DNA of 49,799 nucleotides, taken from the IMG/VR virus record IMGVR_UViG_3300032103_000216, positions 1-49,799 of that record; one strand, given 5' to 3'. The notes beneath the pieces are model-generated. The model was not told the origin of the DNA, searched no databases, and saw nothing but the letters and a program-made list of their open reading frames with translations. Positions 18,519-47,501 of the stretch are shown here, one piece after another (within the stretch, counting starts at the first letter, position 1; each line of letters begins with the position of its first letter). The DNA comes from a virus (taxonomy: Duplodnaviria; Caudoviricetes). The position numbers and the translations under genes were made by a program.

Positions 18519-19196
18519 TTAAAATCTTGGTGTAACGGTTAATCTATCCCAAAAAGTATTTTCCCCATTTTCTTGTTGCTTACAAACTACTCTACCTCTT
18601 TTATATCCAGTAGGTAAATCATTCCAATTAAGACCCTTTTGAAAAATCATTTTTTGCATTTCATTTCCACTTTTACCATGTAGTTCTTTGTGCGAATACA
18701 TAGATTGTGCAACAGATGAAATGCTATTTCTTGTCGCGTCATTCTGTCTCCAGATTAAATAATTTATTGCTTCAGTTCTTGTTGGAACTTGAAATACCCT
18801 AGCATCAAAATAAGCTAATTTAGAAATATTTCTATTAGTTCTTAATTGATTAAACTTAGCTGTTGCCATACTTGCTGATACAGATGACATTTTTTGAATA
18901 TTATTATCAAACCAAGCTGATGTCGTGATTTCATCAAAATCAGTAAGGATGAGTGAAATTTCATCTGATTGAACGTAACCTAGTTTTACTCCCTGAATAT
19001 TTTGACAAAGAAACTTTGTAGTTTCATCCATATCAAAAATCAAATCATCGTCAAAAGGTTTTTTTAAACCTATAGTGTATGTGTGAAAATACACTCCATC
19101 AATACGAATTACTGTATATAATCTACGTAATAAAAAATACCTACTTCTATCTTCATAATTTTTTTTCATTCTGTCACCAAGACTATCTTTTTTCAT
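18519..19196 (-). CDS. tRNA(His) guanylyltransferase Thg1-like protein
   Basis: RIDG..FH, YVQSDEIS, FDARV and WRQNDATRN motifs. Confidence 0.9.
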   Translation of the reverse strand: MKKDSLGDRMKKNYEDRSRYFLLRRLYTVIRIDGVYFHTYTIGLKKPFDDDLIFDMDETTKFLCQNIQGVKLGYVQSDEISLILTDFDEITTSAWFDNNIQKMSSVSASMATAKFNQLRTNRNISKLAYFDARVFQVPTRTEAINYLIWRQNDATRNSISSVAQSMYSHKELHGKSGNEMQKMIFQKGLNWNDLPTGYKRGRVVCKQQENGENTFWDRLTVTPRF

Positions 19197-30576: not shown

Positions 30577-30699
30577 TTAACTAACTGTAATATCCAAAGA
30601 ATAACCCGACTTTTTATGGCAAGAGCCAAAAAAATTACTTCCTGATATAGAATTACTATTCAGGTTGCAAAAGTTATTATTTAGATTGACTAATTTCAT
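30577..30699 (-). CDS. tRNA-operon leader peptide 1 (MKLVNLNNNFCNLNSNSISGSNFFGSCHKKSGYSLDITVS)
   Basis: Lies between promoter and terminator and contains antiterminator AAAAAGTCGGGTT (30603-30615). Codons match the downstream tRNAs. Confidence 0.8.
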   Translation of the reverse strand: MKLVNLNNNFCNLNSNSISGSNFFGSCHKKSGYSLDITVS

Positions 30700-34005: not shown

Positions 34006-34080
34006 TTACACAATAAACCCGTTAGATGACGTAGTACGTCTTTTTCTTGTAATTCGGGTAATTTTAATTAAATTTTTCAT
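34006..34080 (-). CDS. tRNA-operon leader peptide 2 (MKNLIKITRITRKRRTTSSNGFIV)
   Basis: Thr/Arg/Ile codon cluster followed by antiterminator CGGGTTTA, upstream of Thr/Arg/Ile tRNAs. Confidence 0.82.
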   Translation of the reverse strand: MKNLIKITRITRKRRTTSSNGFIV

Positions 34081-36349: not shown

Positions 36350-39300
36350 TTAACCGCATTTTGAGTTACCACAAGATACACAAGTTAAACAACCTTCTTT
36401 GTATTCAAGGTTTTCACTACCACAGCTTGGGCATTTACCATTACCTTTTTCACCATCTTGAAAATATCGCTTAATAACTCTGGCAACACCATTCTTCCAA
36501 GTATTAAGATGCTCATCATTTAAATTTAATGATTGAATTAAATTCAATACATAAACCATTGGCATCCCATGACGTAATACTGACGAAATCAATTTAGCAT
36601 AATTCCAGAATTCAGGATTAAAAGTATGATTTAATCCAGTGTGAACTTTCTTCTCTCCATTAACATCAACGTATTCAATGTCGTAACGCTTAGTACCATC
36701 ATCATACTTATTTTTTACAATTTCACATTCAGTAATATTTGTAGGCAATTCACTTAAACCATTTTCTAATTTACCTGTAAATATTTCATATGGTCTTCCA
36801 TCAAGTAAACCAACTACCGCAATCCACTTTTCAAGATTATTTTGAAAACGAATAATCTCACCTTTTAATCTTTTAGGTCTTTTAGGTGCATGATTATCTT
36901 TAAATAAGTTTTCCTTTTCTTTTTTCTTCTTATCTGTTTCAGAAATTAAAACACCAGAACGAGAGCCATCACGGTATACAGTAATACCTTTGCATTTTGA
37001 TCTCCATCCAGTTTCATATACTTTACCAACCATTTCTTCAGTGATTTCATTTGGTAAATTTACTGTTACAGAAATTGAATGATCTACATGTCTTTGTACC
37101 CGACCTTGCATTTCAACTTTCTTTACCCAATCAACATCGTTTGATGTAGCACCATAATATGGTGAAAGTTTAACAAGTTCATTAATCTGTTCATTAGTAT
37201 AATGTAGCTTAACATTTTCAACATCATAGCCATTTGCAACTAACCATGTTTCAAATTTATGATGAAATACAGGATACTCCATCCAAGTATCACCTAACTC
37301 ATCAACAAAATCAACACGAACATTTTTATCGTTAGGATTAATTTTTCTTCTACGAGTATAATATACCAAAAATACACACTCAATACCAGATGATGTTTGA
37401 GTCATAATAGATACTGAACCAGTAGGAGCAATTGTAAGTAAAGCAAGATTTCTTCTGCCATACTTAATCATTTGTTTATATAATTCAGGGTCTTCATTTT
37501 CAATTCTCTGAATGAATGGATTTTTTTCTTCACGTCTAAAGTCATACATAGGGAATGCACCACGTTCTTTAGCCATGATAACTGATGAACGATATGCTTC
37601 AAGTTTAAGTACTTTATGCACTTCTTCTGAAAAATCATTTGCTTTATCAGTACCATACTTTAAACCAAGTGCTGCAAGCATATCACCTTCAGCAGTAACA
37701 CCAAGACCTGTTCTACGACCTCTTGTTGCTTTATCTTTAATATTCAACCAAAGTTGTCTTTCAGCATTTTTTATGTGCTCAACTTCAGGATCGTTCTCAA
37801 TCTTAGTTAAAATTTTAACAACTTTTTCCAATTCAAGATCAACAATATCATCCATTAATCTTTCAGCAATAATCGCATCTTCTTTAAATGCTTCCCAATC
37901 AAAATATGCATCTTTGGTGAATGGATTTACAACATAACCATATAAGTTGATTGCTAATAAACGGCAAGAGTCGTTAGCACATAATGTAATTTCACCACAT
38001 CTTCTTGTTGATATACCATTAACTATAATATTTCTACCAATATCTTCTTTTAGACAGTAAACTGGTTCATTTTCACATACTTTAATTTCATTAATAGTAT
38101 CAGTTAATGAATCTGAAATTCTGTAATCATGCGTTGTATCAAATTTACTTTCTTTCACATTATCACCTATAAACCCAAAATATTTACAATAATTCACTAT
38201 TGATGAATTTATTGTTATTAATTCATATTGTGTTTTAGTACGATACATTTTATTACCACCATTTCCATCTGGTAGTGATGTCATTTTAGAATCTCTTCTT
38301 TTATAGATTTTAGTCATAACACCATTAGAATGTAATATCAATTGTATTTTTTCAAGTAAATTTTTATTACTTTGTGCTAACCTGATTGAAAAACCAGACC
38401 TTTTCGTACCTTGAATTGAACCATCACAATACATCAATGCTGCAACGTAATATTTACCAATGCTGGTTCTTGAATTTCTTAAAATAAATTCTGGTACATG
38501 ATGCTTAGTTTCCCTATTGAAATTACAGTACTTATCTAGAATAATAGCTAACCATTTGGATGTTATTCTAATTTTATCTGCATCAACAATGTCGCTACGC
38601 ATATATTTAGAATATAGTTTATTTTTTTCATTTACTTTTTCATCAAAATTTTGATATAGAGTATCAATCATATTAGTAACGAATTCATACATTCTTTCTT
38701 TATCTTCACCCCATAAATCTATATGAACTCTACCATTTTTTTTAGTAAATGTACCATCACCAGTAATTAACCCAATTAATGTAGCCATAATCTCATCTAA
38801 AGAAGTAGGTGTTAAACCAACAATAGAATCACCAACATTTGGTTGACTAATCAATATTTGATGTTCAGGTGTGATGTCTTTTGCCTCAATCATCCCATCT
38901 GTTGTTGCAATATGATGGTCAGGCGTACACTTTAATTTTAGTCCACTATTTAATGTTAACTCAATAATTTCTGCATCTGATTTCGTTAAAAATACATTAC
39001 TTGCATTTCTTTCTATTACACCTGATTCATCCATATTGATTTTCCAATTCTCTGGTTTTTCAATTCCATCATCAACATATGAAATTCTATTATCTGCAAG
39101 TATAGTGTTTTCAACACCTTCATCATTTAGTTTCCCAAATTTTACATACCCATTTTTAGTCAACAGATATTCCGATGCAGGAAAGCAAGGATTTGTTGAA
39201 ATTGTTTTAAACCCTAAATCAGCATAACAATCAGGAATAGATTCACGAATAATTGTATCCCAAAATAAGATTCCGGGTTCGGCTGATTTCCATGCATTAT

Positions 39301-41122
39301 GTACAATCTTCTTCCAAAGTTTATTAGCATTAATTTCTTTAGTAAAAACTGGATTATCTGAATCAACAGGATATTGTGTGGTATATGATTTATTGCCCAC
39401 TGCAGCTTCCATGAAGTCATCATGTATTCTAACAGATACGTTAGCACCAGTTACTTTACCTTGTGTCATTTTAGCATCAATGAATGATTCTGAATCAGGA
39501 TGTTTGATTGATATTGATTCCATCAATGCACCTCTACGACCATCTTGTGCCACTTCTCTTGTAGTGTTTGAAAAACGTTCCATGAAAGGAACAACACCTG
39601 TTGAAGTTAATGCTGAATTTTTTACTGGTGAACCTTGTGGTCTGATAAAAGATAAATCAACGCCAACACCTGCACGTCTTTTTTGTAATTGAGCAATTTC
39701 CTGATCTAGTTTAAAAATACCACCATATGAATCTGCATCTTGATCATTACCAATTACAAAACAGTTATGGCATATTATATCACCAGCAACAAATGAGTGA
39801 TCTTCCTCAACTTCCATATCAAAAACTTCAACATTTATTGGTGACTTGATAAATGTTATTTTATCTTCTTTAGTTGAGATTGTTGTACCTATTGTTCTAT
39901 TTTTTATTAATTTTCCTTTAGACAAAAAATTATATCTAACATTTTTACCAATACTTCTACACAATAATCCCAATTCATATGCCAATGTCTGATTTGCAAT
40001 TGCAAAATAATTATAATCATCATCAATGTCAGTATAATTAGTTCCATCACCAAATAAAAATCCATCAATAATTTCTCTTTTTAATTCATCATCAAGAGAA
40101 AAAATCCATTCTGGTAATCTTTTACAATCAAATCCATGTCCAAATAATTTGTTAATTAATTTAGCAAATTCAGGTTCAAAAATATTTATTTGGATGAAAT
40201 TAAAGTTATCCCATTTTTGAATCCATGACTTATGACCTAAAATTTCAATGAAGAAATTATCTAATCTATCTTTTACATGATCTTCTTCATCAACATTTAA
40301 GGTCAAATATAGTGATGGATGATTACTACCTATTTTTTTTATTGCACCTTCTGCTAAATATAATCCAATAAACCATGCAAAATCTTTATTTAAAAAAACA
40401 TGTTTTCCATTACCAATTGGAAATAAGTCAGGTGATTTAATATCACTAATCAATTTAGGCTGTTTTAACCTTTTATTTTGTTTGTTTAATAAATCTTTAA
40501 CTTCAATCCATTCATTATTTTCAGTATATACTTTATGTTCAGGAGTAACTGCTAAGTATTTACCCATTTCGTTTTCATTTCTTACATTAGGACGTTTATC
40601 TCCAAATGTTCTTGTTATTGTATATGTTTCTTTTATACCATTAAACCAATGTTTTAATACTTTTCTAAAACGATTATTATGTGTTAATACATGATAACCT
40701 GATTTTATATCTTTCATTTTAATTAATCCAAATTCTTTAGTATATACCAAAGATTCACCATGAACACAATTCGAAATCGAAATTGTTTGAAAATTATTTC
40801 CAATACCAGCCATTGGTGATCCTTGTGGAACAATCTTTTCAAAGTGTTTGATCTTATCATATATAAGTTCTGCTGATAATGGATTTTCGTATTTAGCTTC
40901 GATTCTTGCAAGTTCATTTGCTAATCTCCAGTGCATGTCATCAGGAGTTAACTCATAAAGATTTCCATCTGAATCTTTTAAACAGTATTTGTTTATCCAA
41001 ACTTCTGCTGCTAATGTATCTCCTTTAAAATAATCTAAGGTTGCTTTGTAAACCTCTTCTCTTGTGTAACGTTTTAAAATTGTTTTTTCTTGTTTTTTAG
41101 GTTCTTCTAATACGGCTTCCAT
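36350..41122 (-). CDS. nrdJ: class II (adenosylcobalamin-dependent) ribonucleotide reductase with two inteins
   Basis: PQGSP, SNC|FV, RRGALM, NP|CGE, RRTGLG, IAPTGS, HSISVTVN, KGITVYRDGSR and a C-terminal TSCPD/zinc ribbon. Likely start is MEAVLEE at 41122. Confidence 0.95.
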   Translation of the reverse strand: MEAVLEEPKKQEKTILKRYTREEVYKATLDYFKGDTLAAEVWINKYCLKDSDGNLYELTPDDMHWRLANELARIEAKYENPLSAELIYDKIKHFEKIVPQGSPMAGIGNNFQTISISNCVHGESLVYTKEFGLIKMKDIKSGYHVLTHNNRFRKVLKHWFNGIKETYTITRTFGDKRPNVRNENEMGKYLAVTPEHKVYTENNEWIEVKDLLNKQNKRLKQPKLISDIKSPDLFPIGNGKHVFLNKDFAWFIGLYLAEGAIKKIGSNHPSLYLTLNVDEEDHVKDRLDNFFIEILGHKSWIQKWDNFNFIQINIFEPEFAKLINKLFGHGFDCKRLPEWIFSLDDELKREIIDGFLFGDGTNYTDIDDDYNYFAIANQTLAYELGLLCRSIGKNVRYNFLSKGKLIKNRTIGTTISTKEDKITFIKSPINVEVFDMEVEEDHSFVAGDIICHNCFVIGNDQDADSYGGIFKLDQEIAQLQKRRAGVGVDLSFIRPQGSPVKNSALTSTGVVPFMERFSNTTREVAQDGRRGALMESISIKHPDSESFIDAKMTQGKVTGANVSVRIHDDFMEAAVGNKSYTTQYPVDSDNPVFTKEINANKLWKKIVHNAWKSAEPGILFWDTIIRESIPDCYADLGFKTISTNPCFPASEYLLTKNGYVKFGKLNDEGVENTILADNRISYVDDGIEKPENWKINMDESGVIERNASNVFLTKSDAEIIELTLNSGLKLKCTPDHHIATTDGMIEAKDITPEHQILISQPNVGDSIVGLTPTSLDEIMATLIGLITGDGTFTKKNGRVHIDLWGEDKERMYEFVTNMIDTLYQNFDEKVNEKNKLYSKYMRSDIVDADKIRITSKWLAIILDKYCNFNRETKHHVPEFILRNSRTSIGKYYVAALMYCDGSIQGTKRSGFSIRLAQSNKNLLEKIQLILHSNGVMTKIYKRRDSKMTSLPDGNGGNKMYRTKTQYELITINSSIVNYCKYFGFIGDNVKESKFDTTHDYRISDSLTDTINEIKVCENEPVYCLKEDIGRNIIVNGISTRRCGEITLCANDSCRLLAINLYGYVVNPFTKDAYFDWEAFKEDAIIAERLMDDIVDLELEKVVKILTKIENDPEVEHIKNAERQLWLNIKDKATRGRRTGLGVTAEGDMLAALGLKYGTDKANDFSEEVHKVLKLEAYRSSVIMAKERGAFPMYDFRREEKNPFIQRIENEDPELYKQMIKYGRRNLALLTIAPTGSVSIMTQTSSGIECVFLVYYTRRRKINPNDKNVRVDFVDELGDTWMEYPVFHHKFETWLVANGYDVENVKLHYTNEQINELVKLSPYYGATSNDVDWVKKVEMQGRVQRHVDHSISVTVNLPNEITEEMVGKVYETGWRSKCKGITVYRDGSRSGVLISETDKKKKEKENLFKDNHAPKRPKRLKGEIIRFQNNLEKWIAVVGLLDGRPYEIFTGKLENGLSELPTNITECEIVKNKYDDGTKRYDIEYVDVNGEKKVHTGLNHTFNPEFWNYAKLISSVLRHGMPMVYVLNLIQSLNLNDEHLNTWKNGVARVIKRYFQDGEKGNGKCPSCGSENLEYKEGCLTCVSCGNSKCG
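38000..39187 (-). mobile_element. intein 2 (396 aa, LAGLIDADG) at NP|CGE with atypical C-terminal Arg
   Basis: Starts CFPASEY, block B CTPDH, LIGLITGDG and ALMYCDG motifs, ends VYCL...IIVNGISTRR|CGEI. Confidence 0.85.
39764..40768 (-). mobile_element. intein 1 (335 aa, LAGLIDADG) at SN|CFV
   Basis: Starts CVHGES, VTPEH, FIGLYLAEG and GFLFGDG motifs, ends VFDMEV..DHSF...CHN|C. Confidence 0.92.
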
Positions 41123-41290
41123 TTTTAATTTTTTGTAGTTTTTTATAAAATAAATAGACTCTGACACTGACAGTATCAGAATGTTTTTTGGATTTTTTAC
41201 CAATGTTAGAAATAAATACAAGATGTGTCAACCAAACTTTTGAAAAAATAAATATTTATTTTTTCTGTTAAGTGTAACTATTGATTATCA

Positions 41291-42052: not shown

Positions 42053-42090
42053 AAAATAAAAAACCCTGACCTTTGTGAAGATCAGGGTTT
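42053..42090 (-). terminator. attenuator terminator of tRNA operon 3
   Basis: AAACCCTGATCTT-CACA-AAGGTCAGGGTTT followed by TTTATTTT. Confidence 0.88.
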
Positions 42091-42111
42091 ACTACTGTTG
42101 CTTTCTTACTG

Positions 42112-42180
42112 TTAAGACATAGTATTACCGATCTTCACTTCTGAAGACTTTTTATAATAATATTTCTTTACAGTTTTCAT
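42112..42180 (-). CDS. tRNA-operon leader peptide 3 (MKTVKKYYYKKSSEVKIGNTMS)
   Basis: KKYYYKK followed by antiterminator GTGAAGATC, upstream of Tyr, Tyr and Lys tRNAs. Confidence 0.85.
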   Translation of the reverse strand: MKTVKKYYYKKSSEVKIGNTMS

Positions 42181-42203
42181 TTCTTTAAATATCAATTTTT
42201 TTA

Positions 42204-42243
42204 CAAATGTACAACTAAATACGTTAATGTCAAGTAAAAAGTT
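42204..42243 (-). promoter_or_regulatory. composite tRNA-operon promoter
   Basis: AAC...CTTGAC-N4-ACGTATTTA...TACATTTG. Confidence 0.8.
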
Positions 42244-42257
42244 ATATTTTTTTCTAA

Positions 42258-42760
42258 TTATTTTTCAGCATCTTTTTCCATTTTGTTCAAACGATCATAA
42301 TAATCTGGTATTTCAGTTAAATGATCCATTGCAATTTCTTCAGCCATCTTTTCATCATTTGTATGCTCTAATTCTATCTTCTTACCCTTCTCTATTTGCT
42401 GTTTAATTGACTCCATAGACACGTTATGTTTTTTGGCTATATCTCTTCTACGGTTAATTTATCAGCCTTACCACCAGCCACTAAATCTTGTTTATCGTCA
42501 ATATTATCACCCTTTTCTCTTTTAAGATAACCAAGAATAGCGTCCATATTATGATATGAGACACTTAATTTATCTTGAACCCAAGCATCAAGATTATCAG
42601 AATCTTTCATCATACCCTCAATTTGGGTAGCCATTTCGATTATATCCTTCAACTTAGGTTTGAAATATGTTCCATCATTTTCATGATAGTTATTTTCCTT
42701 AAAATCAGGATTAAGTTTTTCCATCATTTCGAATAGTCTTTGTTTACCTTGCTTTTTCAT
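42258..42760 (-). CDS. putative virion protein with C-terminal DUF5661-like domain (frameshift near 42440)
   Basis: GGKADKLT.EEI continues in another frame as AKKH...GKKIELEHT...EIAMDHL.E.PDYY.RL. Confidence 0.6.
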
Positions 42761-42783
42761 GGTATAAAATATCAATTTCTAAC

Positions 42784-42812
42784 TATAAATACCATAAAAA
42801 CTTGTATTTATA
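42784..42812. promoter_or_regulatory. back-to-back TATTTATA putative late promoters
   Basis: TATAAATA 42784-42791 (minus) and TATTTATA 42805-42812 (plus) between divergent genes. Confidence 0.5.
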
Positions 42813-42829
42813 TAAAAAACTATAATTCT

Positions 42830-44029
42830 ATGGCAAAATTAACAAAGCAACAATTCGCTAACTGGTTAGGATATGATGTAAATAAGGTTTTTGAAACTAT
42901 TGAATTGGTTAAATTAGCTGATCCTGATGGAATTTGGGCACATGCTCAAGATATGGGTGATGAAGATATGGAGAATATAGTGGAAGCAATCTATTTCGAA
43001 TATGGATCATTAAAAGAGGCTATTGAAGCATGTAAAGATGCTCTTGGAATTAGCGAAATGAATGAGGCTGATGGTAATATGCAAGATCAATTAACGTTTA
43101 ATGAATTACCACAAAAGGTAAAAGATAATTTTTTCAGAAATGTTACTATTAGTGTTGCTTTTGTAAAAAAGGATGGAACTGTTAGACATATGGCTTTTAG
43201 AAGAAATCTAAAATCTTATGTGAGAAGTGATGCTCCAAAAACAGATGCCCAAATAAATGTTTTAAAAAACAATAATCTTTTGAATGTATACGATACTAAT
43301 GTTTTTATTCAAAAGAAAAGAGAACTTGGTAGTGATGATTTAGCAGCAAAACAAAGCTATAAAAATATTAGTCTTGGTAACGTATTAGCTTTTTTAACTG
43401 GTGGTGAATTATTTGATATGAGAGAAAGAAACCAGATAAAAGAAAGATTTGGTGAAGATATATATCGTTCTTTAACTAAAGGTATGGAAGCAGCAATGAG
43501 AAGTGATGAACAAACATCTGAAGCAGGTATGCAACAAAATGAATCATTGTTACCCGAAGGAGAAAAACAAAAAATTAAAGAAACAATTCTTAGAATTAAA
43601 GGACTTAGCAAGCAGATGGATGATTTTTCAGATATGATGGATGTTATCGATAGCAATCCACAATACTTAGCTAAGTATAAAAAAATAATAACACAAGCAT
43701 TAAAAGATGTAATGTTTGGTGGTAAATTAACCGCATACAAAATGATGTTGCGGGAAGTATTCTTTAGTAATTCACAATTTATAATTGAAGTTTTAAAACA
43801 TAGAGGTTCATTAGCTAATGCACCAATGATTGAGGGAATGTTAGATAGAGTTGGAAGTGCTATGTCAACATTATTGCTTAAGGGTAGTATTGATGAGACG
43901 ATAGAATCTCCAACATCAATGTATAAATATATCGATGATCCTGCAGTAAAAGAGGAACTAAAGAGAATGTCAGTTGAAAGAGGTAAGAATAAGTTAATGG
44001 GAATGATTGATGCCTCAAAATTAAAGTAA
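42830..44029 (+). CDS. hypothetical protein with SH3/WYL-like F.KKDG.VR domain
   Basis: Likely start MAKLTK at 42830. VAFVKKDGTVRHM motif. Confidence 0.7.
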   Translation: MAKLTKQQFANWLGYDVNKVFETIELVKLADPDGIWAHAQDMGDEDMENIVEAIYFEYGSLKEAIEACKDALGISEMNEADGNMQDQLTFNELPQKVKDNFFRNVTISVAFVKKDGTVRHMAFRRNLKSYVRSDAPKTDAQINVLKNNNLLNVYDTNVFIQKKRELGSDDLAAKQSYKNISLGNVLAFLTGGELFDMRERNQIKERFGEDIYRSLTKGMEAAMRSDEQTSEAGMQQNESLLPEGEKQKIKETILRIKGLSKQMDDFSDMMDVIDSNPQYLAKYKKIITQALKDVMFGGKLTAYKMMLREVFFSNSQFIIEVLKHRGSLANAPMIEGMLDRVGSAMSTLLLKGSIDETIESPTSMYKYIDDPAVKEELKRMSVERGKNKLMGMIDASKLK

Positions 44030-44030
44030 T

Positions 44031-45506
44031 ATGGCAGTTATAAGAAAACCAAATAGTCTAAGAAATATTATTACGAATATTATTAAGGAAGAATATTCAA
44101 ATATGGTATTAAATGAAATCACCTCTAAAGAAGCTAAAGAAAAATTCTATAAGGACATAGATGACAAACTTTACGGTACTATTATAAGTTTAGACCCAAC
44201 ATATAATGCTCAAAAAGATATTATGGGTAATTATACCAAATGGTTATTAAGACCTGATAATCTTGCTAAATTAAAAACTACTAAAGAAGAAGATTTTTAT
44301 AAGATAAAAGATGATTTAACCAAATTTCATAAATTAAAAACATCAAATAAATTACCACTAGAATTAAGAGACATTAATAAATTTAATCTTGATAAGCTAC
44401 TTGAGTATATATTCAATAATTATTCAGATGAAATCAGTGCATCTAAAACACAAGAAATAAAGAGTGTAAAAGGTGAAGCTGAAAAATATGATTTTCCTAA
44501 ATGGACAGTTATAGTACCTAAAACTGAAGAAGCATCATGCTATTATGGTAAAGGAACTAGATGGTGTACTGCTGCAACTCAAGGAAAAAATTATTTTGAT
44601 TTATATAAGAGTAGAGGCAATTTATGGATTTTAATTAATAAAGATGATCCCAATGAAAAATATCAATTACATTTTGAAGATGGTCAATTTATGGATGTAA
44701 TGGATAGAGATTATTCTTTATTAGAGATATTAAAGACTGATAGTAAATTATATGATTTTTTTACAGAAAAACACCCAATGCAAATATTGGAGTTTGCTAT
44801 AAAAAATGCTGACTCAAATTTATTTTCTGATGTTTTTAGTAGAGGTAAATTTAGTAAAGATCAGAAACATGATTTAGTTATAGATATATTAGAAAGTATT
44901 AGTGACTGTAATTATAATACATCTGACTACACAGATATGCTAGATCATATAGGAAATTTAAGCACTTATGAAATAGAAAAAGATAAGTATAGTAGTTATG
45001 CATACTCGATTCAATGTATGATGAAAACTAATTATAATGATGATGAATATGTTGTTTCGGAAGTTAGTTGGTTTATAAGAATGTTTGGTGGACTTAATGA
45101 TCTTGATGATATGGATACATTTTTTAATATAGCATATAATGATAATCCAGAATTATTTTTAATTATCATTAATGAGTTATATGCTAATGAGCTTTTTAGA
45201 AAATATGTTGCATATAATGATCTAAACGATAAAGTGAAATTAAACTTAGAGATAATGGAAGTTATATCAGATTTAAAAGAAAAATTTGAAACCTATCCAG
45301 TAATAGAAAATAAAATTGCAAGAATACATATCAAAGATATTGACTTTGAAAACAATAAATTTAATATCGAGATAGGATTAAAAAATGGAAAAGGTAAAAT
45401 AGTAAAAACTCAAAAAGAAAAAATACACTATAAAAATATTTATAATTACATTAATAATTATAAATTAATGATGGATGGTAAAAATATAACCAAACCATTA
45501 GTCTAA
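44031..45506 (+). CDS. hypothetical (putative virion) protein with YG..T.WCTA motif
   Basis: 491 aa with ASCYYGKGTRWCTAA...KYQLHF and an IIKEE...LNE leader. Confidence 0.75.
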   Translation: MAVIRKPNSLRNIITNIIKEEYSNMVLNEITSKEAKEKFYKDIDDKLYGTIISLDPTYNAQKDIMGNYTKWLLRPDNLAKLKTTKEEDFYKIKDDLTKFHKLKTSNKLPLELRDINKFNLDKLLEYIFNNYSDEISASKTQEIKSVKGEAEKYDFPKWTVIVPKTEEASCYYGKGTRWCTAATQGKNYFDLYKSRGNLWILINKDDPNEKYQLHFEDGQFMDVMDRDYSLLEILKTDSKLYDFFTEKHPMQILEFAIKNADSNLFSDVFSRGKFSKDQKHDLVIDILESISDCNYNTSDYTDMLDHIGNLSTYEIEKDKYSSYAYSIQCMMKTNYNDDEYVVSEVSWFIRMFGGLNDLDDMDTFFNIAYNDNPELFLIIINELYANELFRKYVAYNDLNDKVKLNLEIMEVISDLKEKFETYPVIENKIARIHIKDIDFENNKFNIEIGLKNGKGKIVKTQKEKIHYKNIYNYINNYKLMMDGKNITKPLV

Positions 45507-46136
45507 TTTTAATTTATTAGGCTTCCAAGTTTTTGTCCAATGTTCATTTGTTGATACATGTTTTGGTCTTACTGCTTTTGCATAATACATTTGAAAATCA
45601 TCATAATGAAATTGCATTGCAACTCGACAAACAATACCTTCAGATTTACTAAAATCTAATCCGTAATAAACCTCTTCAAGTTTTTTATAATCAAAAATAC
45701 CGTCATAAAGAACTGGTACATGTTTTAATCCCCATTCTTTACAATAGTGAACTGTAGTATCCCAACCAAGACAATAATTATTCTCGTCCCAAATATTGAA
45801 TACGTAAAAGTATGATTCTAAATTCTCATATCTTATTGAATGTTCAGCAAACATATTTTCACCGCACACTCTCCAGCCTTCAGGGATTAAATAATCAAAG
45901 TTGGCTTTAAATCCTTTAAGCCAATTTCTGGATGGATGACCATCATCAGTTACTGAACGAGGATGATAGTATCCTTTATAGATAGACGCATTTTCTCCAT
46001 CCAACTTCTCAGTTGCTATTACTCTCTTCCCTTCAAAGCCTTTTAGTGTTTCAAGTTTTCTATCATCGTTTTGTAGTGATTCAGAAAACTCAAAATGAAA
46101 AGTCTTAGGATATTTTATTGCGTCAAGATAGTTTAT
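45498..46136 (-). CDS. ATP-dependent RNA ligase family protein
   Basis: KYPKT.H, motif I TEKLDGEN, CGEN, F.VF.IW, HVPVL, EGIV.R, AK.VR..H. The frame extends upstream of the called 46004 start to an ATA at 46136. Confidence 0.85.
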   Translation of the reverse strand: MNYLDAIKYPKTFHFEFSESLQNDDRKLETLKGFEGKRVIATEKLDGENASIYKGYYHPRSVTDDGHPSRNWLKGFKANFDYLIPEGWRVCGENMFAEHSIRYENLESYFYVFNIWDENNYCLGWDTTVHYCKEWGLKHVPVLYDGIFDYKKLEEVYYGLDFSKSEGIVCRVAMQFHYDDFQMYYAKAVRPKHVSTNEHWTKTWKPNKLKLD

Positions 46137-46465
46137 AATTCCTTAAAATACGTATATGAAATAATCAATGCTAAATAATGTAAAAACTGATCAAGTCTTA
46201 TTACTGAAAAAAATGATGGAAATCCATAAAATTTGTTTCCTTTATATAGTTTACTTGTCCATCTACTTGTACAATAATCAGTAATCCAGTGCAATACACC
46301 ATTTAATAATATCCAATAAATCATCAAAACCCATCCATATAATCCAACATTAAACCAAAGAAGTAAACCTATTGGTATAATACCAATTGAATAATAAAAA
46401 ACATGTTATGATAACCAATAATTAGATGTACTTTTATTGGTTGCCATATCTTTTGTTTGAAGTAG
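46133..46465 (-). pseudogene. DUF3307-like membrane protein, disrupted
   Basis: LQTKDMATNKS, HWITDY, DQFLH. The 5' part is out of frame or truncated. Confidence 0.5.
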
Positions 46466-46588
46466 GTGTTTCAGATATTAAATCAAATTCACGTAAAGTT
46501 AAAGTAGGATTCGGAAGTGAAGAATTTGTATATTCACCATCCGAGTCCTTTGTTGTATACTGCACTAATTCGTATCTATAGAATTTCA

Positions 46589-47501
46589 TTAGTAATTTCC
46601 TTCAATAACTTGAAAACATTTCAATCCAAGTTCTCTCCACATTGACACAACTTGATTTCTGTCATCATAAACACCAAGTACATTAAATTTGCCATTGATA
46701 TGCTCATCAAAAATTCTTTTCTTAATGACAGTATCTTTATCTAAATTATCTGCAGGTCTTATGTATAAATAATTAAAATGAATACCGTTTTCTGTAAGCC
46801 ACATCTTTGTTAATTCTTCACATGAACCATCACGTCCAGTTACAATGATAATTTTATATCCTGATGCTTTGTGGATTCTAAGAGTTTCACGAACCTTTTC
46901 ATCAACCACATCAACATCAACATTATCCCAATCAAAATGTCCTCTCTTACCATTAACATGTGCCAATGTTCCATCAATATCAAACACAATAGTATTTGGT
47001 AGATTGTTATCTGGCTTCCAGTCAATGTTTTGATACCATTCTTGGTTTCTTTCTTCTGTATGAGAAATTAAAGTTTGAATCATATAGATTCAAATAGTTC
47101 TCATACATTTTCTTGATCACTTCTTCGCCAACCATAGCAGCACCTCTTTTGCTATCTCTTTCAATAGCTAAATCCACTGGAACATCAAATATTTTAAATT
47201 CAACGTCAGCCAATGTTTGGCAAAAATCAACCATTTCTGCCAGATATTTGATATTCACGTTTGTTTGATCAACAATAACATTGAACTTAAAATTAATGGC
47301 AGTAGATATTGCATTCTCAACCAATTGAGTTACTAATCTTTCACCCTTTGGGTCAAGCATTTGCGATTGTGCAAGCATTAAGCGATAATCATCACGGCAA
47401 ACACGAACATAGTCAGTATTCCTACGGACAAATTCTTTTGACCATGTTGATTTACCAGATGCAGGTATTCCTATTGCCAATGTTATTTTAAGTGTTTTCA
47501 T
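46589..47501 (-). CDS. pseT: polynucleotide 5'-kinase / 3'-phosphatase (T4 PseT-like), split by a frameshift near 47035
   Basis: GIPASGKST, RD.YR, DQTN kinase domain, then FDIDGTLA, TGR, DDR..VV.MWR HAD phosphatase. Confidence 0.85.

Follow-up and report, generated by a model that had tools for sequence, protein, structure and literature searches.

On the minus strand of an uncultured phage sequence, positions 42053-42180 hold what is very probably a ribosome-coupled (trp-type) transcription attenuator of phage tRNA genes that senses tyrosine and lysine, as judged from sequence. This reading is well supported because of the conservation, covariation and geometry of the unit. On these features and on its anatomy we base a model of how the leader would be translated, where transcription would terminate, in which direction the unit would respond and what might trigger it.

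The window (the whole stretch of DNA that was analysed, 49.8 kb) is a linear virus record of 29.6% GC. It encodes a ribonucleotide reductase with an intein, ClpP, RNA ligase, PNKP and Thg1 and contains 26 tRNA matches. The nearest annotated records of its ClpP come from huge uncultured phages and Lak phages, and no cultured close relative of the window phage was found. The large subunit of the reductase (36350-41161, minus strand) carries an intein with a LAGLIDADG domain. RNA ligase, PNKP phosphatase and PNKP kinase domains lie in separate ORFs at 45498-47501 (minus strand), 3.3-5.3 kb upstream of the unit; with the tRNA-His guanylyltransferase at 18519-19196 (minus strand) they make up a tRNA repair and maturation kit. 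The ORFs beside the unit (42760-42437, 42740-44029 and 44031-45506) gave no Pfam match.

Another gene of the window, a PTH2-like peptidyl-tRNA hydrolase (26438-26085, minus strand; PF01981, E 5e-7), has an in-frame TAG at codon 4 and directly follows an amber-anticodon tRNA(CUA) at 26593-26521. The early stop is retained as TAG in a 247-kb relative (G001) and as a stop at the aligned place in G002. None of the long ORFs in the window has TAG as its stop; 22 stop at TAA and 7 at TGA. Possibly, the PTH2-like gene is gated by the phage suppressor tRNA.

The unit begins with a predicted Bacteroidota sigma-A promoter at 42204-42233 (minus strand), made up of a TTG(ACA) upstream element, the box AACGTATTTA (42225-42216) and the -7 box TACATTTG (42211-42204). 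Transcription would start near 42199. The combined pattern TTGAC-N3-AACGTATTTA-N4-TAnnTTTG occurs three times in the window against 0.02 copies expected, a figure to be read knowing that the pattern was derived from these three sites, and all three copies precede a short leader ORF, a terminator and a tRNA cluster. TAnnTTTG is described as the Bacteroidota -7 element, with its consensus at -12 to -5 (PMC6847099, PMC9723704). Because of this match, we infer a Bacteroidota host and polymerase for the phage.

The leader ORF (42180-42112, minus strand; 22 codons, MKTVKKYYYKKSSEVKIGNTMS) has an A-rich start region without a Shine-Dalgarno sequence. It opens with ATG AAA ACT GTA, continues with the control codons AAG AAA TAT TAT TAT AAA AAG (KKYYYKK; codons 5-11, 42148-42168) and ends in TAA. 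The probability of such a run of seven Tyr/Lys codons is about 1.3e-6 per place at the codon usage of the window, although this is a post hoc figure. The last control codon lies three codons 5′ of the antiterminator strand GTGAAGATCGG (42128-42138, minus strand), whose partner is 42085-42075 in the 5′ arm and loop of the terminator.

Within this pair, GTGAAGATC (42138-42130) is complementary to GATCTTCAC (42083-42075), each present in one copy on the minus strand of the window. Among 20,000 shuffles of the leader, 58 yielded a 9-nt stretch exactly complementary to the terminator arm. The predicted intrinsic terminator (42053-42090, minus strand) consists, by sequence and structure, of a 13-pair stem (42090-42061) and a T tail; it follows the leader stop after 21 nt and ends about 10 nt 5′ of the first tRNA. 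A protector (1:2) stem is predicted at 42108-42174 (minus strand), and its core hairpin (42148-42142 with 42137-42131) masks the antiterminator strand in the predicted fold of ribosome-free RNA. The same fold is predicted for G001 and for another locus, L165. The minimum free energy of the 151-nt leader region is -39.6 kcal/mol (z -5.0).

Behind the terminator come three tRNA genes, all on the minus strand. The first tRNA-Tyr(GTA), at 42050-41976, is degenerate with a short variable region; it was called by ARAGORN at the relaxed threshold only, scores 29.6 bits in Rfam (cut-off 29) and may be non-functional, and it is also present in close strains. The second tRNA-Tyr(GTA) (41967-41883) and a tRNA-Lys(TTT) with an unusually long variable arm (41778-41688) were both found by ARAGORN at its default threshold and by Rfam. 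Between tRNA-Lys and the next ORF, directly after TTGACA, there is a long AT-rich inverted repeat (41612-41569, minus strand), which may mark where the tRNA transcript ends or be an operator.

The sequence-only reading had described an ORF at 42180-42112 with KKYYYKK, an exact complement of a leader segment in the terminator 5′ arm and loop, and two Tyr(GTA) and one Lys(TTT) as the only downstream tRNAs. The ORF is in the sequence as written, and the complement is there too, within a helix that reaches 11 bp including one G-U pair (42138-42128 with 42085-42075). The tRNA set was likewise confirmed, with the first tRNA-Tyr being weak and no further tRNA before 33938.

Taken together, the unit shows what is expected of an attenuator. 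A short ORF with codons cognate to the operon output stands at the 5′ end of the predicted transcript; an intrinsic terminator, recognized by sequence and structure, separates it from the regulated genes; and the antiterminator excludes the terminator and is kept by covariation. The control codons are so placed that, as computed alongside a thr control, a stalled ribosome frees the antiterminator strand and a moving one covers it.

In our folding model the ribosome blocks up to 12 nt from the A site, and several nascent lengths are compared. On the partial transcript ending at 42066, the antiterminator reached 0.89-1.0 with the A site at codons 8-11 and 0.47 at codons 5-7, and it was lost from codon 12-13 on. 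The fold of ribosome-free RNA depends on nascent length (antiterminator 0.99 at 42070 and 0.05 at 42066), with the protector stem lying over the antiterminator strand at 42066. At full stem length the terminator was favoured in every ribosome state (P 0.86-1.0), and read-through must therefore be kinetic. The E. coli thr leader, folded by the same protocol, gave the same switch pattern, and its terminator also wins at full length. Because this control behaves likewise, equilibrium folding cannot prove the switch.

According to the proposed mechanism, host RNA polymerase would start near 42199 and a ribosome would load on the leader immediately. With ample charged tRNA-Tyr and tRNA-Lys, the ribosome would pass codon 11, cover the antiterminator strand and halt at the stop 21 nt before the terminator; the terminator would form and only a leader RNA of about 140 nt would be made. 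If tRNA-Tyr or tRNA-Lys ran short, the ribosome would dwell at codons 8-11 (codons 5-7 would be less effective), melt the protector hairpin and leave 42138-42128 free for the terminator 5′ arm and loop, resulting in read-through. New phage tRNAs would speed up decoding of the leader and turn the unit off again, a negative feedback on tRNA supply. The tRNA set of the phage would be split into several such units, each with a codon-matched leader. Candidate triggers are host anticodon nucleases, tRNA loss driven by the phage itself and plain over-demand.

The Tyr/Lys unit is conserved. The G001 ortholog of the leader, MITIKKYYYKKSSKVKISNTIS, precedes tRNA-Tyr and tRNA-Lys genes; the latter was called Leu by ARAGORN and its Lys anticodon was identified by eye. 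The two leaders are identical at 63 of 69 nt and differ by five amino-acid changes, none of them in codons 5-11, so that KKYYYKK is kept. The antiterminator is retained, and the G-U pair of the window is an A-U pair in G001. Identity amounts to 29/32 columns in the terminator, 13/21 in the spacer, 61/89 aligned columns in tRNA-Tyr and 50/97 in tRNA-Lys.

For close strains, contigs of six other runs (X2-X7) were aligned to the unit. Across leader ORF, antiterminator and terminator stem they differ by one synonymous Lys change, with spacer changes in X5. The sequence-only reading had staked itself on the leader being conserved in relatives that keep the Tyr and Lys tRNAs; when examined, G001 and the other relatives do keep it.

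Positions 41943-41860 form a hypervariable spot, in which the 3′ part of the second tRNA-Tyr is swapped for other sequence (from 41943) in X2, X3, X4 and X7. X4 joins 509 other letters at this gene; X2, X3 and X7 appear as loose ends, and a loose end resembles another Tyr anticodon arm.

Similar leaders were found by a scan for YYY, a terminator and a Tyr anticodon, which gave 116 matches including L077 and the window. This pattern imposes YYY and the Tyr anticodon and leaves the frame, the stop position, the partner residue and the helix free. At a tRNA lay 23 of the 116 matches, and in 22 of these YYY is inside an ATG-started short ORF that ends 12-28 nt before the terminator (14 distinct peptides, 11 of them with TAnnTTTG upstream); the exception, L183, has its leader in another frame.

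The residues around YYY follow the downstream genes. Lys runs are found in leaders before Tyr+Lys clusters (L077, L186, L341, L351, L363 and L373), Glu takes the place of Lys before Tyr+Glu clusters (YYYEE or YYYEVE; L301, L317), and the YYYYY leader of L162 precedes tRNA-Tyr only. Counting against the match, the leaders of L154-L156 have Lys codons although the scanned DNA showed no tRNA-Lys. The antiterminator sequence differs from unit to unit and is in each case complementary to the terminator of the same unit, weakly so in L301 (-7.3 kcal/mol).

The leader class was also examined with a pattern that holds no amino-acid information (a terminator and a tRNA T-loop). In 5/64 parts of IMG/VR it gave 123 loci, from which about 1,800 stretches are estimated overall, and full flanks were taken for 80. 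The blind set comprised 93 terminator-tRNA units, 82 after deduplication, 61 of them with an ORF of 10-60 codons; in 45 of these 61 the leader stop has the right spacing, 15-35 nt before the terminator. Correctly spaced ORFs precede 49 of 80 terminators as compared with 12.0 +/- 3.0 in shuffles, and in AT-rich DNA 37 of 41 as compared with 5.9.

In the 45 units the fraction of cognate residues is 0.306 versus 0.186 with tRNA sets swapped (z 10.3), and in the remaining 16 ORF-bearing units the excess has z 1.7. With one leader per similarity cluster (n=20) the match persists (z 6.5-7.7), and in the two other frames it falls to z 0.3 and -2.0. The duplex of the leader with the terminator 5′ arm is stronger for the own arm (-13.2 versus -9.9 kcal/mol for swapped ones, z -10.0; own arm best in 11/45 units), and the 3′-arm control in 68 units gave z -2.1.

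A position profile was drawn from 55 of these 68 units, selected loci included, after removal of units with weak duplexes or with clusters spanning more than 8 amino acids. In the stretch 4-10 codons 5′ of the antiterminator, 0.42-0.61 of the residues are cognate, and where the antiterminator begins 0.18 are, the null being about 0.16. The peak, at 4-9 codons, thus lies just 5′ of the antiterminator, the geometry required by a ribosome footprint.

Matching of individual codons was clear for Ile only (ATA in 4/8 Ile codons where tRNA-Ile(TAT) follows versus 2/14 where only GAT follows, on small numbers). For Ser, Leu, Lys and Gln, where codons beyond the cluster anticodons are used, it was absent, and we therefore claim a match at the level of amino acids and not of codons.

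Two sister units in the window, also on the minus strand, have the same layout. Behind one leader, MKNLIKITRITRKRRTTSSNGFIV (34006-34080), a terminator begins at about 33976, and tRNAs for Thr (two), Arg (four) and Ile (two) come next. The other, MKLVNLNNNFCNLNSNSISGSNFFGSCHKKSGYSLDITVS (30577-30699), has a terminator from about 30558 and then tRNAs for Asn, Phe, Ile(TAT), Ser, Gly, Leu and Cys. They are rich in Thr/Arg/Ile and in Asn/Phe/Ser/Gly/Leu/Cys/Ile, respectively, and so match their own clusters. The true assignment of leaders to clusters ranks 1 of 6 in the window, 1 of 120 in G001 (five units, all 20 amino acids) and 1 of 720 in G002 (six units, 18 of 20 amino acids). A tRNA-like gene with an unassignable anticodon loop (29922-29851, minus strand) has a counterpart at the same position in the G001 cluster.

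We give about even chances to the idea that many large phages have a sensor panel in which each tRNA cluster is served by one codon-specific sensor. The panel would report the tRNA species depleted in the infected cell, for instance by an anticodon nuclease, and induce the matching genes only. Such a panel would be an inducible, self-limiting counter-defence without a protein regulator, with the Tyr/Lys unit as one channel.

The sequence-only reading had tied the unit more narrowly to anticodon nucleases, since tRNA-Lys and tRNA-Tyr are targets of PrrC, PARIS AriB and retron PtuAB. As to the targets, it agrees with the published accounts: retron-Eco7 PtuAB is described as degrading tRNA-Tyr and PrrC170 tRNA-Lys, with phage tRNAs rescuing infection (PMC11555353), and AriB of PARIS as cleaving tRNA-Lys (PMC11464382) and also Thr and Asn tRNAs (10.1101/2025.02.04.636281). 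The same switch could accordingly have a narrower purpose, that of a dedicated counter-defence alarm which detects cleavage of tRNA-Tyr and tRNA-Lys by PtuAB-, PrrC- or PARIS-type nucleases and resupplies resistant tRNAs. Besides the choice of targets and the rescue by phage tRNAs, the RNA ligase and PNKP domains encoded 3.3-5.3 kb upstream fit such an alarm, and so does the exchange of tRNA alleles behind a near-invariant leader in the close strains and G001, as an arms race predicts.

However, the leader-gated tRNAs show no preference for Tyr and Lys. In G001 every one of the 20 amino acids is represented in the five clusters that have a leader, and in the six G002 units examined 18 of 20 are; in the blind set Tyr occurs in 9/24 and Lys in 8/24 units, with no excess over Trp, Cys and Pro (9 each). 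We therefore treat the nuclease purpose as a special case and not as a result, and consider a dedicated alarm possible, if rather doubtful. It is plausible that defence nucleases are one trigger of a general sensor of tRNA supply. What stands of the sequence-only reading is thus the attenuator, which conservation, covariation and geometry of the sequence argue for, and not a nuclease purpose specific to Tyr and Lys.

A second alternative is a general translation-stress or timing device that responds to any ribosome slowing, to nascent-peptide arrest or to a phage antitermination factor, with codon identity being incidental. Any stall at codons 8-11 indeed gives the same predicted fold, and the AACGTATTTA box common to the three promoters could bind a phage factor. 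Nevertheless, codon identity follows the downstream tRNAs in unrelated leaders, in the ORF frame only and upstream of the antiterminator only, and the leader peptides share neither an arrest motif nor any other motif beyond an M-K/T/N start, which makes this device improbable. It is more improbable still that the ORF is untranslated, with the leader RNA sensing tRNA directly in the manner of a T-box or the terminator acting as a fixed leaky valve and the ORF as a by-product: leader translation is a prediction and the terminator dominates at equilibrium, but Rfam gave no T-box or riboswitch match, the open frame, the position of its stop and the codon match confined to that frame all exceed chance by far, and close strains vary only in the spacer and at one synonymous site.

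Leaders of the tRNA-gating attenuator type are also present in cultured phages. In Cellulophaga phage phi4:1, MKIQRLHLQELEQPIISGGTGV stands before tRNAs for Pro, Glu, Gln, His, Leu, Leu and Arg and MKTNYCTYNNSNWSFSYDTGSVCTLGSDGLIG before those for Tyr, Ser, Ser, Asn, Trp and Phe; no ORF was called at a third terminator. Caulobacter phage CcrColossus has two leaders, in each of which 14 of the 16 first residues are cognate, the second having been identified by eye without a terminator call. In the published Lak megaphage Lak-C1 (L152, MK250029.1), a 38-codon leader and a terminator (8401 onward) precede a large tRNA array. At the tRNA clusters of phi92, pT24, immuto_2-6A and crAss Bcn4 (the Bcn4 cluster is cut by the start of the record) and at some clusters of G002-G004, the scan detected no leader. 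The detector itself sometimes missed true units, such as Leader 1 in one version.

In the bacterial chromosomes searched, the design is rare and not a common feature, which does not imply its absence elsewhere. A GTDB-wide pattern, which was insensitive (it matched 0 of the known phage units), gave 26 loci, two of them with Asn-rich leaders. A search of 401 genomes from the phylum of a Flavobacteriaceae bin found a terminator-tRNA pattern in 36; among the 30 loci returned, 11 had a tRNA, 9 a terminator unit and 1 a correctly spaced leader.

In a Ca. Magasanikbacteria bin and a Gammaproteobacteria bin (L206, 2000-2190, and L213, 2000-2200) a single chromosomal tRNA-Asn lies behind an Asn-rich short ORF and a terminator. 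These may be a cellular version of the leader design. No convincing leader was seen at the other tRNAs of the two genomes (42 and 38 examined). At another locus (L285, 1387-1620) a leader-like ORF, an antiterminator match and a terminator precede a lone tRNA-Glu near trpS, and the ORF contains a single Glu codon, located roughly where control codons would be.

We found no prior description of leader-peptide attenuation of tRNA genes in full-text literature searches covering main texts and few subscription journals. The words attenuat- and leader are absent from the main text of the phiCbK genomics paper, the huge-phage survey, the eLife phage-tRNA paper and the jumbo-phage review. Leaders of this kind would directly reveal which tRNA becomes scarce in the course of infection, and they could be used as genetic reporters of defence systems that cleave tRNAs. 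The identity of tRNAs overlooked or mislabelled by annotation software can also be predicted from them, as for the G001 tRNA-Lys that ARAGORN called Leu. The two cultured phages, phi4:1 of Cellulophaga baltica and CcrColossus of Caulobacter crescentus, make the design testable.

Codon compensation and defence evasion are the main answers to the long-standing question of why phages carry tRNAs. A codon-matched switch before each cluster implies that the tRNAs are made on demand.

Leader-peptide attenuation is a known control of amino-acid synthesis genes. The E. coli pheST attenuator (pheM) and other synthetase attenuators control the decoding machinery instead of biosynthesis; they are chromosomal, and their target is the charging enzyme and not a tRNA gene. 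Only tRNA genes lie behind the phage leader, and neither biosynthetic enzymes nor a synthetase as in trpL, thrL and pheM. T-box riboswitches also sense tRNA charging with a terminator/antiterminator output, by binding uncharged tRNA directly and without an ORF. The phage leader has no T-box match in Rfam, where only tRNA families matched, and it lacks the T-box stem I with its specifier loop and the antiterminator bulge.

Phage-borne tRNA-Tyr and tRNA-Lys as in the window also occur in E. coli phage phi92, where the two are adjacent but, unlike here, no leader was detected. T5-like phages carry both as well, effective against retron-Eco7 PtuAB, PrrC170 and PARIS (PMC11555353, PMC11464382). Their rescue is reported to depend on the strength of the tRNA promoter (PMC11555353); the passages concerned describe a strong promoter and no conditional switch, unlike what is predicted for the phage unit.

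The general mechanism of leader-peptide attenuation has been described (PMC1183508), and such attenuation has been reported upstream of amino-acid operons in a flavobacterium. The closest known system is the E. coli thr leader (thrL), which senses two amino acids, Thr and Ile. A short leader ORF, clustered control codons and the protector, antiterminator and terminator helices are common to both, and the gap from stop to terminator is 20 nt in thr and 21 nt in the phage unit. The phage unit would work like thrL, yet its target genes do not encode enzymes as those of the thrL family do. Attenuators of amino-acid operons control enzymes, whereas this one sits in a phage and would control tRNA genes, and, unlike theirs, the output of the phage genome, its tRNA set, is split among several leaders with different codon sets. 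Since the output consists of tRNA genes and not of enzymes, the product itself would close the feedback loop and, if this is true, attenuation extends from enzymes to tRNA genes.
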